Shown: positions 13,149 to 60,019, numbered from the stretch's first letter. The stretch is DNA of 64,000 bases from Candidatus Bathyarchaeia archaeon (GCA_038817885.1 JAWAZE010000005.1:1097-65096); one strand, 5' to 3'. Program-made: numbers and translations. The notes: a model not told the origin generated them from the sequence alone.

Positions 13149-14153
13149 ATGGCGGACGATGTTATTAAAGCTGAGGGTTTAACAAAGGTCTTTAATAAGA
13201 ACTTGGTTGCCGTGGATCATGTAAGCTTTAGCGTCAAGGATGGTGAAATATTCGGTCTCCTTGGACCAAATGGCGCTGGAAAAACGACAGTGATCAAAAT
13301 GTTGACAACTGTCCTAAAGCCTACTGAGGGCAGAGCCCTTGTCTTGGGTTATGACATTATTAAGCAGGCAAGCAATGTTAGAAGGGTTATAGGAGTCGTC
13401 CCACAAGATTATACTACAGACGAGGATTTAACAGGATATGAAAATATAATGCTATGCGCAGACTTGTATGGTGTTCCACGAGATATAGCGAAAAAACGAG
13501 CCCTTGAGCTCCTAGAGCTCGTAGAGCTAACGCGCTTTAAGGATAAGAGGGTTGAAACGTATTCTGGTGGTATGCGCCGCAGGCTTGAACTTGCATGCGG
13601 CTTAATCAACAGACCGAAAATACTTTTTCTGGACGAGCCGACATTAGGTCTGGACGTTCAAACGAGGGTTGCGATATGGAATTATATTCGCAGGCTTAAG
13701 GATGAGTATGATATGACGATCTTTATGACGACGCACTATTTGGAGGAGGCCGACAGCCTTTGCAACCGCATAGTAATAATAGATCATGGGAGAATAATAG
13801 CTCTTGACTCCCCAAGCAACCTAAAAGATAGCTTGGGCGGAGATATAATAACTCTGAGTATAAAAGAGAATGTGGATGTCAGCGGCATTATCCGTTCCGT
13901 TGAGAATGTTAAGGATGTTAAATGCGATAATAATATTTATAGGATTAAGGTCTCCTCCGGAGAAGCGACAGCGCCCCTTATAATTGAGGCACTGCGAGGG
14001 GAAGGCTACACAGTGACTAAACTCTCTCTTACAAAGCCAACGTTAGATGAGGTTTACCTTGAGTATACTGGAAGAAGAATGCGCGATACCGAGGGGTCCG
14101 TGGAATCAATCATGAAGCATAGGATAATCATGAGGAGGGCTAGGGCACGGTGA
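13149..14153 (+). CDS. ABC transporter ATP-binding protein (ABC-2/DrrA-like)
   Basis: Walker A GPNGAGKTT, signature YSGGMRRR, Walker B ILFLDEP. Confidence 0.9.
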   Translation: MADDVIKAEGLTKVFNKNLVAVDHVSFSVKDGEIFGLLGPNGAGKTTVIKMLTTVLKPTEGRALVLGYDIIKQASNVRRVIGVVPQDYTTDEDLTGYENIMLCADLYGVPRDIAKKRALELLELVELTRFKDKRVETYSGGMRRRLELACGLINRPKILFLDEPTLGLDVQTRVAIWNYIRRLKDEYDMTIFMTTHYLEEADSLCNRIVIIDHGRIIALDSPSNLKDSLGGDIITLSIKENVDVSGIIRSVENVKDVKCDNNIYRIKVSSGEATAPLIIEALRGEGYTVTKLSLTKPTLDEVYLEYTGRRMRDTEGSVESIMKHRIIMRRARAR

Positions 14154-18106: not shown

Positions 18107-19048
18107 GTGGATTATGTTATTGAGACTGAGGGATTAACGAAGATATACCGGTCTGAGGGAAAGATCATAAAGGCCCTAGACCATTTAGACCTAAAGGTTG
18201 AGGGCGGAAAAATCTTCGGCCTCCTCGGACCCAACGGCGCTGGAAAAACGACCCTGATAATGACCCTTATAGGATTGATCATGCCGACAAGCGGATCGGC
18301 AAGGGTCTTAGGTTTCGACATCCTCAAAGATTCAATTGAGATTAGAAAGAGGGTTGGCGTTCTGCCTGAAGGAGCAGACTTCTATGACCATTTAACAGCT
18401 AAGCAGAACCTGCTTTACATAGCGGCCTTGAATGGAATTGATAAGGCTGAGAGGGAGAGGCGTGTTGAGGAGGTTTTGAGGGTCGTTGGTTTAGAGGATG
18501 CTAAAGAAAGGAAGGTTGGAGGCTTCTCCCGTGGAATGAAGCAGAGGTTGGGGATAGCGCAAGCACTACTAAAGAGCCCCGAGCTCCTAATATTTGATGA
18601 GCCGACGGCTGGGTTAGACCCAGAGGCTTCAAGGGCCTTTAAAAACATGGTTCTAAAGCTTAGAGACAAGGGAAAAACTATCATGCTTAGCACCCACCTA
18701 CTCTTCGAGGTCGGCCCACTATGTGATAACATAGCGATAATCAATCGTGGGAGAATAGTATTGCAGGGCAGCGTTAAAGAGCTTGCCGAAAGATTTATAG
18801 CTGAAGAGGGCTACAAAATCCGAGTTCAGGGCAAAGGAGACATTGGAAGACTTACCAATGCTATTCTGAACCTTAAGGACGTAAGAAATGTAAAAGTTGA
18901 TAAAGAGTGCATCTTAATTGAAGCCAGCAAAGATATTAGAGTTGAGGTTAGTAAGTTAGCATCAGCACATGGTGTAGAAATTGTTGCGCTTGAGCTTACA
19001 GTTCCATCCATCGAAGACCTCTTCATGAAGTATTATAAGTGGGAGTGA
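18107..19048 (+). CDS. ABC transporter ATP-binding protein
   Basis: GTG start; Walker A GPNGAGKTT, signature FSRGMKQR, Walker B LLIFDEP. Confidence 0.9.
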   Translation: MDYVIETEGLTKIYRSEGKIIKALDHLDLKVEGGKIFGLLGPNGAGKTTLIMTLIGLIMPTSGSARVLGFDILKDSIEIRKRVGVLPEGADFYDHLTAKQNLLYIAALNGIDKAERERRVEEVLRVVGLEDAKERKVGGFSRGMKQRLGIAQALLKSPELLIFDEPTAGLDPEASRAFKNMVLKLRDKGKTIMLSTHLLFEVGPLCDNIAIINRGRIVLQGSVKELAERFIAEEGYKIRVQGKGDIGRLTNAILNLKDVRNVKVDKECILIEASKDIRVEVSKLASAHGVEIVALELTVPSIEDLFMKYYKWE

Positions 19049-40983: not shown

Positions 40984-41188
40984 CTAAACCTTCACCGCTC
41001 GAAGTTTAGAACAATTAATAATTTACTAATTCACAAGTTATAAATTATTCGGTTAATTGTGAGTTCAGAAAAAGCAAAAATTTTCCTCATTTTCTGAAAA
41101 TAAGAAAAATTTTCAAGGATTAATGTTAACAGAATTAACGTTCCGAAGATCTTTTGAAAAGAAAAAGAAATAGATTTCTTTTTCTTTT

Positions 41189-41211
41189 TTCCAGTAGAAA
41201 CGGAGGGGTGG
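41189..41211 (+). repeat. ORB-like origin recognition box
   Basis: ttccagtagaaacggaggggtgg; compare the archaeal ORB core TTCCAnTGGAAA followed by a G-string. Confidence 0.65.
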
Positions 41212-41397: not shown

Positions 41398-41604
41398 AAG
41401 GAACACATGCTTCTAAATATCAGTTTTTGATAAATTAAGAGGTGAATTTCCAGTTTTTTAAAAATTCTCATAAAATTCTTCCTAAAACTAATTTTTGAGA
41501 TTATACAAAAAGTTATATAAGTTATGTTAAATATAACTTCTCCCTAATAAAAGTGGGAGATTGTTTTAACAAACAACAAAATAATCTAAATTTATGAGAT
41601 TGTT

Positions 41605-41628
41605 TTCCAGTAGAAATAGAGGGGTAGG
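41605..41628 (+). repeat. ORB-like origin recognition box
   Basis: ttccagtagaaatagaggggtagg; it matches the copy at 41189 in its first 12 nt and in the GAGGGGT core. Confidence 0.65.
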
Positions 41629-56395: not shown

Positions 56396-57598
56396 ATGAG
56401 CGATCCACCAGCCATAATCGGAGTTGGTAGAACCAGGTTCGGTGAGCATTATGAGTTAGATCCAGAGGATCTAATTGATGAAGCGGGATTAATGGCTCTA
56501 GAGTCCGCTGGGGTTGAGCGTAAAGATTTGAAAGCATGCTATATTTCAGACTATTTGCTTCAACTTACTAATAAAATGGGCTTAGAAGAGGGCTTTATTT
56601 CGCATCTATTAGAGATGAATATGCCAATTGAGAGGCTGCGGTCGTTCAGCTCGGCGCTAATGAACGCTTGTAATGCAATCGAGGCTGGAAAATACGATAT
56701 AGTCCTTGTCGGCGGAATTGAAAAGATGACTGATAGATGGGGTAAAATAAGGGATAATCTTATGCTCTTCATGGACCGCTGGAGCTATTATGCCGGCGGC
56801 ACACCAGAATCGAATCATGAACTCCTCCTCAGGGAATATATTAAAGAGAATAAAATTAACAGAGCTGACCGAGAAAAGCTCATGCTAACTTTAGCGTACA
56901 TCTCCGTTAAAAATCACCGTAACGCTATATGGAACGAGTATGCTCACTTTAGAAAGGAGATCGATGTTGAGAAAGTTTTAGCAGCTAGGAGGGAGGAGCA
57001 TAAGGTTCTTGGGACTTATGATTTCGCCCCAATATCTGATGGAGCAACGGCCTTAGTATTGGCAAGTTCAAGAAAGGCTAAAGAATATGTCGATGAACCA
57101 ATATATGTGCTTGCATCAGCCCTAGCAACAGACTATATCTCCTACCCCTCTAGACCATATAGATCTGGCTTCATGGCAAGCAGAATAGCAATAGAAAAAG
57201 CCCTGAAAATGGCGAATATAAACTTAAACGACATAAAATTACTGGAAGTATATGATCAATCAACTGTGCTTGAGATGATTTCGCTTGAGGATCTTGGATT
57301 TATCGAGAGGGGGACAGCGTGGATGAAACTTTATGAGAACTTTAAGAACTCTAATGGCTACTATGACCTCTCTGGAAAAGAGGTTTATGTGAATACAAAT
57401 GGCGGGTTAAAAGCTGATGGGAACCCCCTTGGCGCAACTGGTGGGGCCCAGATATTTGAGGTCGTTGAGCAACTTAGGGGTAAAGCTGGTCAGAGACAGG
57501 TGAAACCTAATGGTGACCTACTTTACGGCTGTGTTCAGGAAATGGAGGGTTTCGGAACGAAGGTTTATGTCCATATATTGGGGAGGGAGAGGGCGTGA
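56396..57598 (+). CDS. Thiolase-fold protein (SCP2-thiolase-like) apparently lacking catalytic residues
   Basis: The overall pattern matches archaeal thiolases (GVGRTRFGE, YDIVLVGGIEKMTD, PISDGATALVL, NTNGGLKA.G.PLGATG). However, L81, Y286/Q288 and N343 occupy the Cys, HDCF and GHP positions. Confidence 0.8.
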   Translation: MSDPPAIIGVGRTRFGEHYELDPEDLIDEAGLMALESAGVERKDLKACYISDYLLQLTNKMGLEEGFISHLLEMNMPIERLRSFSSALMNACNAIEAGKYDIVLVGGIEKMTDRWGKIRDNLMLFMDRWSYYAGGTPESNHELLLREYIKENKINRADREKLMLTLAYISVKNHRNAIWNEYAHFRKEIDVEKVLAARREEHKVLGTYDFAPISDGATALVLASSRKAKEYVDEPIYVLASALATDYISYPSRPYRSGFMASRIAIEKALKMANINLNDIKLLEVYDQSTVLEMISLEDLGFIERGTAWMKLYENFKNSNGYYDLSGKEVYVNTNGGLKADGNPLGATGGAQIFEVVEQLRGKAGQRQVKPNGDLLYGCVQEMEGFGTKVYVHILGRERA

Positions 57599-59106
57599 GT
57601 AGTGAGCCGATAGAGAGAAGGGTCACTTATATTGGCGATAGGCTTAAGGGCAGTAAGTGCCCATTTTGTGGGAAAAAATATTTTAAGCCAAAAAGGTATT
57701 GCGGAAATTGTGGTAGAAAGAGTCTCGGAAAGATGGAAGAGATAGATTTCTTTTACGAGAAGGGTGTCCTTGAAACATGTACTATTATTAGAGAGCCGAC
57801 AAATAAGTTTATGAAGCTCGCCCCCTTCATATATGGAATAATATACTTTTATGAGGGCAAAGTGAGAGTTCCTGGCAGATTAACTGACATGATCATTAAA
57901 GGTGATAAAGAGGTAGATTTAGATGATCTTGAGGGCAGGGAGGTTGTGCCAAGGTTTAGGCGTAGATGCTCTGTCGGTAAAAGCGATATTATACCAACAA
58001 TTTCCCTAGCCTTTACCTTTGCCGATGAATATTACCCATATCAGCGATATGAGGTGCTCCGCCCAAATAAAGAATATGAAGTCCCGGGAATAGTGGGCTA
58101 TGGCGTATATGTTTCGAGGTTCAGGATTAAGGAAACTAGCTTAGAGCGCTCAGTTCCATTTATAGACGAGGACGCTGTGACGGCTGCTGTTGAGGCTGGA
58201 AAGATGGCGCTGATACATTCTGGCGTGGACAATAGGTTTGTAGGTAAAGTTTATGTTGGCACAGAATCTAATCCATACGCCGTTAACCCAATAGCCTCTA
58301 AAGTCGCACAAGTCTTAAAGCTTGGTGGAGAAGGTACTGATGGAATACAGGAGGTGGATGCGGTTGACACAGAGTTTGCTTGTAAGGCAGCCTCAAGCAT
58401 GTTTAAAGACGCTATCGCTCTAACATATTATCCTAGAGATACAGTAGAGTACGTGATGGTTATCGGTGCCGATAACGCTCAAGCCGCACCTAGATGCGAG
58501 CCGGGCGGAGAATTAGATTATTTTGTTGGTTACGGGGGAGCAGCCTTCATATTTGGTAAGAAGGATGTTATTGCTGAGGTTGAGGGATGGTGCTCCTGTA
58601 CATCTGATACGCCCGACTTCTGGAGGAGGGATTTAGAGCCATACCCGCGGCATGGCGGCCGTTTCACAGGAGAACCAGCATACTTTAAGCACGTTATAAA
58701 GACTGGTAGAAAGCTTATGGAAAAGATGAGCTTGAAGCCGAGTGATATAGACTATTTTGTCTGCCATCAACCCAACCCAACATTTCCAGTGAGGGCGGCT
58801 ACAACATTAGGTTTTAAGCCGGAGCAGTATCTGCCGGGAATATGTGTAACAAAGTTTGGTAATACTTATTCCTCTTCTTCGTTGATAGGCTTAGCTGCGG
58901 TGTTAGATCAGGCTGAGCCGTATAAAAGGATAATGATTGTTAGTTATGGCTCGGGTGCGGGGAGCGACGCCTATATATTCGTGACAACAAATCAAATTAA
59001 AGATAAAAGAGGTAGACAGAAGTTCACTGTTAGGCATCAATCGGAAAATAAATTTATTGAATACGTTGACTACGCAACGTATAGAATGTTTAAGGAAGGA
59101 CTTTAG
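57595..59106 (+). CDS. DUF35 (Zn-ribbon plus OB-fold) fused to HMG-CoA synthase
   Basis: N-terminal CPFCGKKYFKPKRYCGNCG plus an OB segment. The HMGCS core follows with GTES (Glu), EFACKAA (Cys), CHQPN (His) and GNTYSSSS. The GTG start overlaps the upstream stop by 4 nt. Confidence 0.85.
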   Translation: MSSEPIERRVTYIGDRLKGSKCPFCGKKYFKPKRYCGNCGRKSLGKMEEIDFFYEKGVLETCTIIREPTNKFMKLAPFIYGIIYFYEGKVRVPGRLTDMIIKGDKEVDLDDLEGREVVPRFRRRCSVGKSDIIPTISLAFTFADEYYPYQRYEVLRPNKEYEVPGIVGYGVYVSRFRIKETSLERSVPFIDEDAVTAAVEAGKMALIHSGVDNRFVGKVYVGTESNPYAVNPIASKVAQVLKLGGEGTDGIQEVDAVDTEFACKAASSMFKDAIALTYYPRDTVEYVMVIGADNAQAAPRCEPGGELDYFVGYGGAAFIFGKKDVIAEVEGWCSCTSDTPDFWRRDLEPYPRHGGRFTGEPAYFKHVIKTGRKLMEKMSLKPSDIDYFVCHQPNPTFPVRAATTLGFKPEQYLPGICVTKFGNTYSSSSLIGLAAVLDQAEPYKRIMIVSYGSGAGSDAYIFVTTNQIKDKRGRQKFTVRHQSENKFIEYVDYATYRMFKEGL

Positions 59107-59135
59107 CCGCTGGGCTGTAAGGGAATGTAAAAAAT

Positions 59136-59150
59136 GAAAAAGTTTATATT
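59136..59150 (+). promoter_or_regulatory. BRE/TATA-like promoter (gaaaaag tttatatt)
   Basis: A purine-rich BRE-like run followed by a TATA-like octamer, about 25 nt upstream of the first base of a long hairpin at 59174. Confidence 0.35.
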
Positions 59151-59173
59151 CATCTTACCATCTCTATTTAATC

Positions 59174-59405
59174 GCTAACATCAGAGCGGTTAAGTCGAGA
59201 TTAAACCCTCGGCTTTCTGCTTTGGTGTTAGCTCCGCGATACAGGACGAAGAGTAATGCTGAACGAACTAAATACTCCGAAAAAGTTGATTGTGGTGGTA
59301 AATCTTCTCTCTTCTATGGGGACGTCTAGACAATCATATTATTCTTCACCGGAGTTCTATCGTAGTTCATTGTTAAACAGCGTTTTCCGCTCCTGGGATC
59401 GCGGG
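59174..59405 (+). ncRNA. Candidate structured RNA or structured 5' leader (unclassified)
   Basis: Hand-folded. Hairpin 59174-59232 has 16 + 8 bp including 4 G-U pairs. A long-range closing helix pairs 59234-59246 with 59391-59404 (7 + 5 bp). Confidence 0.3.
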
Positions 59406-59429
59406 GAAACATGATGAGAGGAGGGCGAT

Positions 59430-59726
59430 TTGAAGGTGAAAATTAGAGAGCTGAAGGATGGAATGCGCAGAGTTAATATAGTGGCGAAGGTTTTAGAAAT
59501 CTCTGAGCCACGTGAGGTTGTTTCAAGGTTTGACGGTCGTATCTATAGGGTTGCTGACGCGGTTATAAGTGATGATACTGGAACCATAAAACTTTCTCTT
59601 TGGAACGAGCAGATTGAACGCGTAAACGTTAATGATACGATAAAGATTGAGAATGGGTATGTAAGGTCCTTTAAGGGGGAAAAGCAGCTTAACGTTGGCA
59701 AGTTCGGGAAATTAACCGTCCTGTAA
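59430..59726 (+). CDS. Single OB-fold nucleic-acid-binding protein (SSB/RPA-like)
   Basis: 98 aa; the VNIVAKVLEIS...ISDDTGTIKLSLWNEQ...IKIENGYV pattern. TTG start preceded by gaggaggg. Confidence 0.7.
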   Translation: MKVKIRELKDGMRRVNIVAKVLEISEPREVVSRFDGRIYRVADAVISDDTGTIKLSLWNEQIERVNVNDTIKIENGYVRSFKGEKQLNVGKFGKLTVL

Positions 59727-59758
59727 GGCGCGGAAAACAAACGTGTGGAGGTGAAAAA

Positions 59759-60019
59759 ATGCAAAGTGAGAAGAGGGATGAAAGGGGTGGGGAAAGGAGA
59801 TTTAAGAAAGGATATGGAAAACGTTTTCCACCAAAGCCAGTGGAGCTCGGAAAGGAATATGACGTTGAGATTCGGGAAGTCAGTAAAAGAGGGGATGGCG
59901 TAGCCAGAATACAGGGTCTCGTAACATTTATACCTAATGCGAAGCCAGGAGATCGCGTGAGGATTAAGATAACTAGGATAAGTAGAAGATTTGCTGAGGC
60001 CGAAATTGTGGGTAGCTGA
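59759..60019 (+). CDS. TRAM-domain protein
   Basis: Basic N-terminus, then PVELGKEYDVEIREVSKRGDGVARIQGLVTFIPNAKPGDRVRIKITRI. Confidence 0.8.
   Translation: MQSEKRDERGGERRFKKGYGKRFPPKPVELGKEYDVEIREVSKRGDGVARIQGLVTFIPNAKPGDRVRIKITRISRRFAEAEIVGS

Follow-up and report, generated by a model that had tools for sequence, protein, structure and literature searches.

Which kind of RNA is encoded between an HMG-CoA synthase gene and a pair of genes for an Ssb-like OB-fold protein and a standalone TRAM-domain protein in a member of the Bathyarchaeia? The locus lies in a 64,000-nucleotide stretch of DNA from Candidatus Bathyarchaeia archaeon (GCA_038817885.1 JAWAZE010000005.1:1097-65096), the whole of which is referred to as the window. 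The element in question occupies the + strand of the 323-nt gap between the synthase and OB genes. A preliminary description had held that this gap is not a featureless spacer, and the features it named are indeed present: a promoter at 59136-59150, a hairpin at 59174-59232, a long-range helix, a Shine–Dalgarno (SD) sequence and a TTG start codon at 59430. On balance, the element is probably the 5' part of the OB-fold/TRAM operon mRNA. It would be a cis-acting leader inherited from the widespread leader of the Bathyarchaeia gene TRAM1, in which the hairpin and the long-range helix, here called the clamp, gate a vestigial open reading frame (ORF).

Archaeal post-transcriptional control has been little mapped, and from uncultured lineages hardly any conserved cis-regulatory mRNA structures are known. 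More than 100 Bathyarchaeia assemblies, from sediments as well as hot springs, contain the leader, which precedes standalone TRAM and Ssb-like OB genes, whose products are thought to be archaeal stand-ins for bacterial cold-shock proteins. It is rated as a lineage-wide archaeal cis-regulatory leader with a vestigial ORF and an unusual clamp from the 5' untranslated region (UTR) to the end of a cistron; any stronger claim hangs on experiments. As RNA chaperones, standalone TRAM proteins unfold hairpins in 5' UTRs (PMC5572242, PMC6705878), and they act as archaeal cold-shock proteins (PMC5572242). At lower temperature, a crenarchaeal SSB serves as an RNA chaperone (PMC10684826). No conserved leader is described in Rfam or in the published work found on archaeal TRAM genes.

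A conserved hairpin at the predicted 5' end

Folding of the whole gap yields -108.4 kcal/mol, compared with -80.9 ± 5.7 in dinucleotide shuffles, which served as folding controls (z = -4.8; 0/100 as good). The + strand is more stable than the - strand by 31 kcal/mol, the latter reaching a z of only -2.0. The hairpin alone folds to -37.0, as against -13.5 ± 3.0 in its shuffles (z = -7.9). The stability beyond shuffled sequence that the preliminary description had taken as its touchstone is thus found, and on the + strand only.

None of the outer-stem pairs is broken in 17 relatives, and eight of them switch between A-U and G-U, the mark of selection that acts on the RNA of the + strand and not on the DNA. 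Most of the 3' strand of the hairpin is invariant in the alignment of close relatives. When 53 leaders are aligned by MAFFT without fitting, pairing is found in 84% of the hairpin cells, compared with 27-48% when the partner strand is slid. In a model-fitted alignment of 101 distinct sequences, which leans towards structure, 87.5% of the cells are paired, 25/26 pairs show two-sided changes, and 293 double-change cells stand against 109 ± 8 in shuffles (0/500). Covariance-model scores differ between the strands, with about 95 bits for the + strand and about 22 bits for the reverse strand. RNAalifold recovered only 6 pairs from plain MAFFT alignments of the TRAM1-type hairpin; as this fell short, a hand-drawn structure and covariance-model realignment were used. 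The hairpin is a + strand RNA-level structure conserved by covariation, which bears out the expectation of the preliminary description.

The distance between promoter and hairpin is fixed. Neither TTATAT nor the AA before it varies among the 17 aligned relatives or among 77 TRAM1-type loci, and 30 nt separate TTATAT from the first paired base of the hairpin in the window and the TRAM1-type loci alike. Archaeal TATA boxes usually lie at about -30 to -23. Together with this geometry, the spacing places the predicted 5' end of the transcript one base before the hairpin.

The apical part of the hairpin and a U-rich stretch (59192-59225) could also act as an attenuator that pauses or terminates the polymerase, with the TRAM and OB proteins melting it and thereby antiterminating their own operon. 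A terminator scan flags 59192-59215 plus UCUGCUUUGG, and TRAM0076, which unfolds 5' UTR hairpins, behaves as an antiterminator (PMC6705878). The scan, however, yields one terminator-like site where 1.2 are expected by chance, and the U-run is interrupted in the window (UUUCUGCUUU). The tract is not conserved in the wider family either, many members of which carry GUUCUCAUGG or GUCUUGUGG there. As attenuation would also leave the clamp and the ORF unexplained, it is considered quite unlikely.

The preliminary description had noted no signature of RNase P, signal recognition particle, C/D or H/ACA RNAs, and scans with Rfam 15 at gathering and permissive thresholds agree, the element in the window and in four relatives being without a family match. 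At the gathering threshold, only a tRNA elsewhere in the whole window was reported. The best candidate in a sensitive scan of 59000-59550 was sn2903, with 17.6 bits against a gathering threshold of 50 (E = 0.31), and the four related loci gave no match at E <= 1.

The clamp and the TRAM1-type leaders

Straight after the hairpin comes the invariant segment UCCGCGAU, the pairing partner of an AUCGCGG that lies about 150 nt further downstream; the invariant duplex of this clamp is UUCCGCGAUAAGGACGAA/GUCGCGGAA. The 5'-arm motif occurs once in the window, with 0 occurrences expected by chance. In the alignment of close relatives (A1) the 5'-arm columns are invariant, as are UCCGCGAUACAGGACGA, the ATG located at 59256 in the window, and most of UCCUGGRAUCGCGG.

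The origin of this arrangement emerges from a wider comparison. A search with the HMG-CoA synthase retrieved 80 Bathyarchaeia genome loci. Sixteen close relatives, mostly hot-spring metagenome-assembled genomes whose synthase is at least 78% identical, share the order synthase, gap of 289-333 nt, OB gene and TRAM gene; the OB-TRAM pair is kept in all relatives. More distant loci (L028, L055 and L063) contain the same promoter, a hairpin of other sequence and UUCCGCGAUAAGGACGAA, followed by TRAM1, a gene for a TRAM-domain protein of 92-94 amino acids, and next the OB gene. Because TRAM1 ends in ...UUY GCN (A/G)UC GCG GAA in these loci, the 3' arm of the clamp corresponds to its last codons. The TRAM1 family (MPRRLPEKT...KFA[VI]AEK) has 493 members in the protein collection searched, and 88 further TRAM1-related loci were fetched. 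The common layout is synthase, Yip1-like gene, leader, TRAM1, OB and a second TRAM gene, TRAM2. The 5'-arm block occurs as UUCCGCGAUAAGGACGAA in about 80 other loci, 8-10 nt upstream of the TRAM1 AUG, and the promoter, the hairpin and the UUCCGCGAU...GGACGAA block precede TRAM1 in more than 100 loci of uncultured Bathyarchaeia. The comparison establishes that in most Bathyarchaeia the predicted clamp brackets the whole TRAM gene, its 3' arm consisting of the last codons, which are under synonymous constraint. This ancestral bracketing of the TRAM cistron, as well as an ORF at 59256 that is kept open in the lineage, had escaped the preliminary description.

The covariance model R1, built from 53 TRAM1-type leaders and no sequence of the window clade, matches window positions 59168-59249 over its full length with 22.7 bits (E = 2-4e-4). 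It also recovers 15/16 clade relatives and other divergent TRAM1 leaders, and gave no significant match in about 55 control loci. With E down to 7e-10, the gaps of the window clade also align with a DNA profile of TRAM1 loci, from the TATA box to ATGCC and no further; the window's own gap is absent from the matches reported. The features typical of the family follow one another in the window. The TTATAT promoter is succeeded by a long hairpin about 30 nt downstream and by UCCGCGAU-(A/AC)-AGGACGAA at 59233-59250, with an AUG 5-10 nt further on (ATG 59256), and (A/G)UCGCGG is present at 59398-59404 before the Ssb-like OB gene at 59430. An intact TRAM1 (MPRRLPEK...KFA[VI]AEK) is missing between the arms, so the window represents a derived variant of the TRAM1-leader family.

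A tblastn search of the interior revealed no TRAM1 remnant, the sole TRAM match in the window being 59753-60004. A recognisable TRAM1 pseudogene was rejected as an identity of the interior, given this empty search and the fact that homology detected by nhmmer ends just past the ATG. Descent of the interior from TRAM1 can be inferred only from the flanks and from an intermediate form (L017, 4560-4787). In this locus the synthase gives way at once to a hairpin of the window type and UCCGCGGUCAGGACGAA. Next comes a TRAM1 N-terminus that seems to be intact (MPRRSNINPRNTCRRGRRFKR...), and the contig stops before the 3' arm. As judged from these alignments, the window lineage has lost the TRAM domain and kept the ancestral AUG and AGGA, the latter being buried by the extension of the predicted clamp.

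The long-range helix put forward by the preliminary description stands with regard to conserved pairing, but not with regard to covariation. In 77 TRAM1 loci, 93.4% of the clamp cells are paired, compared with 35-62% when the partner is slid. The covariation does not exceed that of shuffles, and is weak because both arms are nearly invariant. Support for the clamp comes instead from complementarity, synonymous-codon bias and helix extension. In TRAM1-type loci, the 3' arm (AUCGCGG or GUCGCGG) represents Val/Ile-Ala-Glu codons with strong synonymous constraint. The second Ala codon of TRAM1, which lies inside the arm, is GCG in 70/80 genes, compared with 4/80 at the neighbouring Ala and 37/268 elsewhere in the gene, while the Val codon in the arm is GUC in 57/64 cases, compared with 138/643 elsewhere. 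This constraint is stronger evidence for the clamp than covariation. Individual compensatory changes are found in L081, L154, L110 and L144, and in L169 with CAGGACGA/UCGUCCUG. In the window lineage, where the arm is freed from protein-coding constraint, the helix has become longer and has not decayed, having gained five base pairs (CAGGA/UCCUG) that now cover the old SD-like AGGA.

Several loci depart from the common layout. In L169 (428-700), a divergent member of the window clade, the base of the hairpin is extended by GGU/ACC, the outer clamp is down to 6 bp and the inner clamp up to 8 bp (CAGGACGA/UCGUCCUG), so that the boundary between the stacked helices is shifted. In some lineages (L083/L084, 1501-2060; L109, L124 and L126), another TRAM gene comes directly after TRAM1 and its leader and clamp, without OB in between, which indicates that the clamp goes with TRAM1 and not with OB. 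In L036 (5812-6007), L042, L065, L079 and similar loci, an OB gene without TRAM1 keeps the promoter block AGCAAGATTTATATG ... CTTTTGCAAGTAAAA in a short leader (about 70 nt) that lacks hairpin and clamp. The leader has thus been lost or replaced more than once. A miniature inverted-repeat transposable element or other repeat was considered and rejected, as the 64-kb window contains no second copy and, among 176 loci, the element occurs only at the syntenic position, upstream of TRAM1 or OB.

The interior of the clamp is a different matter. The preliminary description had proposed a second structured domain of about 145 nt, of which the closing helix is real. The interior itself (144 nt) is not unusually structured when folded alone (z = -0.9), and with the arms held fixed it shows no gain over shuffles in 17 relatives. 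The proposed "second domain" thus amounts to the closing helix only, the interior being matched in stability by shuffles. The AUG within the interior is not consistently sequestered, P(paired) ranging from 0.36 to 0.99 among relatives, and a structured interior domain was rejected on both counts. The interior can barely be aligned among close relatives. Inspection of the clamp, made without a dedicated tool, revealed neither a kink-turn, defined as a 3-nt bulge followed by tandem sheared G-A pairs, nor a bulge-helix-bulge motif, defined as two 3-nt bulges 4 bp apart. A GA/AG tandem in register was not found, and the only irregularity is a 1x2 loop in which A59241 lies opposite GG59396-97.

These results bear on the other identity offered by the preliminary description, namely a free-standing ncRNA of about 230 nt that is transcribed from the promoter at 59143 and ends before the OB gene. 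The element does have its own conserved promoter and a strong fold with domain-closing arms, and some relatives contain a T5-T6 run in the interior. A free-standing ncRNA is nevertheless very improbable, as the homologous elements enclose a protein-coding TRAM gene, the interior is neither structured nor conserved, and a terminator is missing: the window has no T5 run between the arms and there is no conserved terminator before OB. Moreover, the OB gene has an SD, yet past 59405 there is no separate TATA box to serve it, and the openness of the ORF indicates translation. The half of the earlier proposal that survives is the long leader of the OB-fold/TRAM genes.

The open frame between the arms

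The start codon ATG 59256 and the AGGA are invariant in the alignment of relatives, and an ORF of 41-63 codons extends from this ATG in 15/17 of them. Frame 0 is free of stops to or through the 3' arm in 13/17 relatives, for which the chance per sequence is 0.02-0.14 according to dinucleotide shuffling. Summed over the relatives, stops up to the arm number 7 in frame 0, and 66 and 31 in the other frames. The prediction of openness was examined on eight more loci fetched via the OB protein, of which four were duplicates of earlier sequences. All four new sequences, including two new subclades, have an open frame with 0 stops, compared with 1-4 in the other frames, which brings the count to 17/21 relatives. 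The stop of the ORF lies between -29 and +19 nt relative to the OB start, and in 61 loci the TRAM1 stop lies 0-25 nt (typically 13-16) upstream of the OB start. Since both stops are near the OB start, the coupling geometry is broadly preserved without the protein. A start codon, an SD-like motif, a frame that is open irrespective of the peptide and a stop near the OB start are what is expected of a leader ORF in translational coupling, and the window ORF is a candidate for this class.

A functional small protein encoded by the ORF, with the RNA features being secondary, was also considered. The retained start codon and the open frame fit such a protein, as do the ATG-to-3'-arm distances in the closest subclade, which differ by multiples of 3 save for a 1-nt deletion within the arm in L004. 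The peptide does not fit it. Only the Met is invariant, the identity between subclades is 12-25%, and codon positions 1, 2 and 3 have equal shares of the differences, with a ratio of non-synonymous to synonymous changes (dN/dS) of ~0.3-1. The frame across the 3' arm differs among relatives, no homologue is present in a collection of 5.8 billion proteins, and gene callers do not call the ORF. A conserved micro-protein was rejected, as there is no database homologue, no alignment past the Met and no third-position excess, and a functional small protein is judged highly unlikely.

There is just as little to recommend a feature of the DNA, for example an operator palindrome where transcription starts, or a neutral TRAM1 relic without present function. 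The inverted repeat of the hairpin does overlap the predicted start, and the interior is clearly decaying. The stems, however, accept G-U in place of A-U, a change that would produce a mismatch in DNA or on the opposite strand, and the strand asymmetry in folding energy and in covariance-model score given above speaks for RNA. Between flanks that do not vary, the interior has diverged too far to be aligned, the helix grew longer once the gene had been lost, and stops are excluded from one frame.

The family thus offers two natural experiments, one in which the first gene is intact and one in which only the RNA features and an empty frame survive, and by this contrast it can be tested which parts act as RNA. 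The locus also carries a warning for annotation, as a "structured intergenic RNA" can be the relic of a gene held by a flanking RNA helix. The features of the locus are collected in Table 1.

Table 1. Coordinates of the gap and its flanking genes in the window
Feature	Coordinates	Strand	Remarks
HMG-CoA synthase gene	57595-59106		5' neighbour of the 323-nt gap
Promoter with transcription factor B recognition element (BRE) and TATA box, gaaaaag-tttatatt	59136-59150	+	TTATAT at 59144-59149 invariant
Predicted transcription start	59173	+	deduced from TATA at 59143-59150; 1 base 5' of the hairpin
5'-terminal hairpin	59174-59232 (59 nt)	+	outer stem 59174-59189 with 59217-59232, 16 bp including G-U; 2x1 internal loop; inner stem 59192-59199 with 59208-59215, 8 bp; 8-nt loop
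Clamp 5' arm, U-CCGCGAU-A-CAGGA	59233-59250	+	within invariant block UCCGCGAUACAGGACGAA; SD-like AGGA at 59243-59246; CCGCGAU-A-CAGGA (59234-59246) pairs with UCCUG-GG-AUCGCGG (59391-59404)
Vestigial upstream ORF	59256-59414	+	52 codons and stop; AUG homologous to the TRAM1 start codon
Clamp 3' arm, UCCUG-GG-AUCGCGG-G	59391-59405	+	complementary to 59233-59246; U59233-G59405 is one extra pair
Ssb-like OB-fold gene with SD	59416-59726	+	start TTG 59430 or GTG 59436; Pfam PF21473; gene callers give 96 amino acids for a protein 99% identical
SD of the OB gene, GGAGG	59420-59424	+	directly before the OB start
TRAM2, standalone TRAM-domain gene	59759-60019	+	Pfam PF01938; last gene of the unit

Predicted control of the operon and neighbouring features

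In the favoured reading as an operon leader, the 5'-terminal hairpin, stacked on the clamp, would shield and stabilise the 5' end of the transcript, and the clamp would compete with initiation on the first ORF. Once loaded, ribosomes would unzip the clamp and pass translation on to the adjoining OB-TRAM genes, so that translation of the chaperone genes would be set by the ease with which the clamp opens. This opening probably depends on temperature and/or on RNA unwinding by the encoded TRAM and OB proteins, which would amount to autoregulation in either direction.

Several points weigh against this reading. The start site, the read-through into OB and the translation of the ORF are predictions. 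Coupling is not obviously required, since OB has its own unsequestered GGAGG, and the ORF is shortened to 14-44 codons in 4/21 relatives. With regard to the clamp, only 4 double-change cells are found in the 77 TRAM1 loci, about 10 TRAM1 loci contain 1-2 mismatches, and the arms vary so little that a sequence-specific partner, not named by the model, is suggested. Finally, the fold predicted in silico is the same from 25 to 70 °C.

A further-reaching proposal can be put forward only tentatively and with some doubt. According to it, the clamp, which joins the 5' UTR to the first cistron at its 3' end and is stacked on a 5'-terminal hairpin, would be an undescribed device that controls the main RNA-chaperone operon of the Bathyarchaeia and senses temperature or the cell's own chaperone activity. 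It would matter so much that, after loss of TRAM1 in a hot-spring lineage, a meaningless ORF was retained purely as a ribosome-driven opener. If this is true, archaea would have a functional equivalent of cspA-type autoregulation that is built on another architecture.

The constancy of the predicted fold also bears on a simpler option, a cspA-like RNA thermosensor in which alternative folds at low and high temperature switch translation or stability and the upstream ORF is not needed. The preliminary description had drawn this parallel. In its favour are the chaperone-type genes, the long structured leader with its hairpin at the very 5' end, like the cspA cold box, and literature analogy (PMC5378194, PMC5572242). 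It stays at the level of analogy. There is no Rfam match to cspA, the SD and start codon of OB are unpaired in the minimum free energy (MFE) structure of the predicted transcript, and, besides the identical MFE at 25-70 °C, the helices melt only above 80 °C in silico. RNA thermometers of the ROSE, fourU or cspA type hold the SD or start codon in a helix that melts at physiological temperature, whereas in silico only the relic AGGA is paired here. According to their authors, Methanolobus TRAM genes are without a thermometer-like 5' UTR (PMC5572242). A thermosensor would also leave the open ORF and the clamp unexplained and is regarded as unlikely. For the hairpin taken by itself, a pure thermosensor or a hairpin-plus-U-tract attenuator is a possible role.

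Comparison with known systems places the predicted operon leader between several models. It would work most like the leader of a bacterial cold-shock gene combined with a device of leader ORF and long-range pairing, yet it belongs to none of these families, having no Rfam match and another architecture. Like the 5' UTR of E. coli cspA, it is a long structured leader before genes for small nucleic-acid chaperones, with structure at the extreme 5' end, and autoregulation by an encoded RNA-melting protein is plausible in both. There is no homology in sequence or structure, however, and the present element is archaeal, with no temperature-dependent alternative fold predicted. Furthermore, cspA is without a clamp from 5' UTR to cistron end and without a translated spacer ORF, whereas the present element has a clamp and a predicted spacer ORF.

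Stem-loops at the 5' terminus stabilise bacterial mRNAs, the ompA leader being an example. The present element resembles them in its stable hairpin within 1-2 nt of the predicted 5' end, which leaves no single-stranded 5' tail. It differs in that the hairpin is unusually long (24 bp) and stacked on a second, long-range helix, and a stabilising function is a prediction. Archaeal decay machinery is also different (aCPSF/aRNase J types).

Long-distance pairing that is opened by translation of an upstream cistron is known from the coat-replicase "Min Jou" interaction of phage MS2. As in this system and in leader-ORF coupling, one arm of the clamp lies inside or at the end of the upstream ORF, where ribosomes must unzip it, and the downstream start is within coupling distance of the upstream stop. 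In contrast to MS2, the predicted helix leaves the downstream ribosome-binding site uncovered and covers (window lineage) or abuts (TRAM1-type) the SD-like motif of the upstream ORF itself.

The TRAM0076 and TRAM cold-shock proteins belong to the same protein family as the operon products, unfold 5' UTR hairpins and raise expression (PMC6705878, PMC5572242). Their reported action is in trans, on the short 5' UTRs (20-60 nt) of other genes, and these papers found no special leader on the TRAM genes themselves and do not describe the Bathyarchaeia leader (PMC6705878, PMC5572242).

A few observations concern the surroundings of the element. The HMG-CoA synthase gene (57595-59106) encodes an N-terminal DUF35-type module, a zf-ChsH2 zinc ribbon with OB_ChsH2_C, in the same ORF. 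This fusion is lineage-wide, as the full 503 amino acids of the synthase are matched in all 80 Bathyarchaeia loci. A thiolase gene (56396-57598) shares a 4-nt overlap with the synthase gene. Elsewhere in the window, a 51-nt direct repeat is present at 41159-41209 and 41575-41625, with a spacing of 416 nt and the end TTTTCCAGTAGAAA[CT][GA]GAGGGGT, possibly the duplicated promoter or ribosome-binding region of paralogues that lie side by side. An 86-nt direct repeat (13209-13294 and 18173-18258; 73% identity, 5 kb between copies) seems to be the conserved Walker-A region in a pair of paralogous genes for ABC-transporter ATPases.

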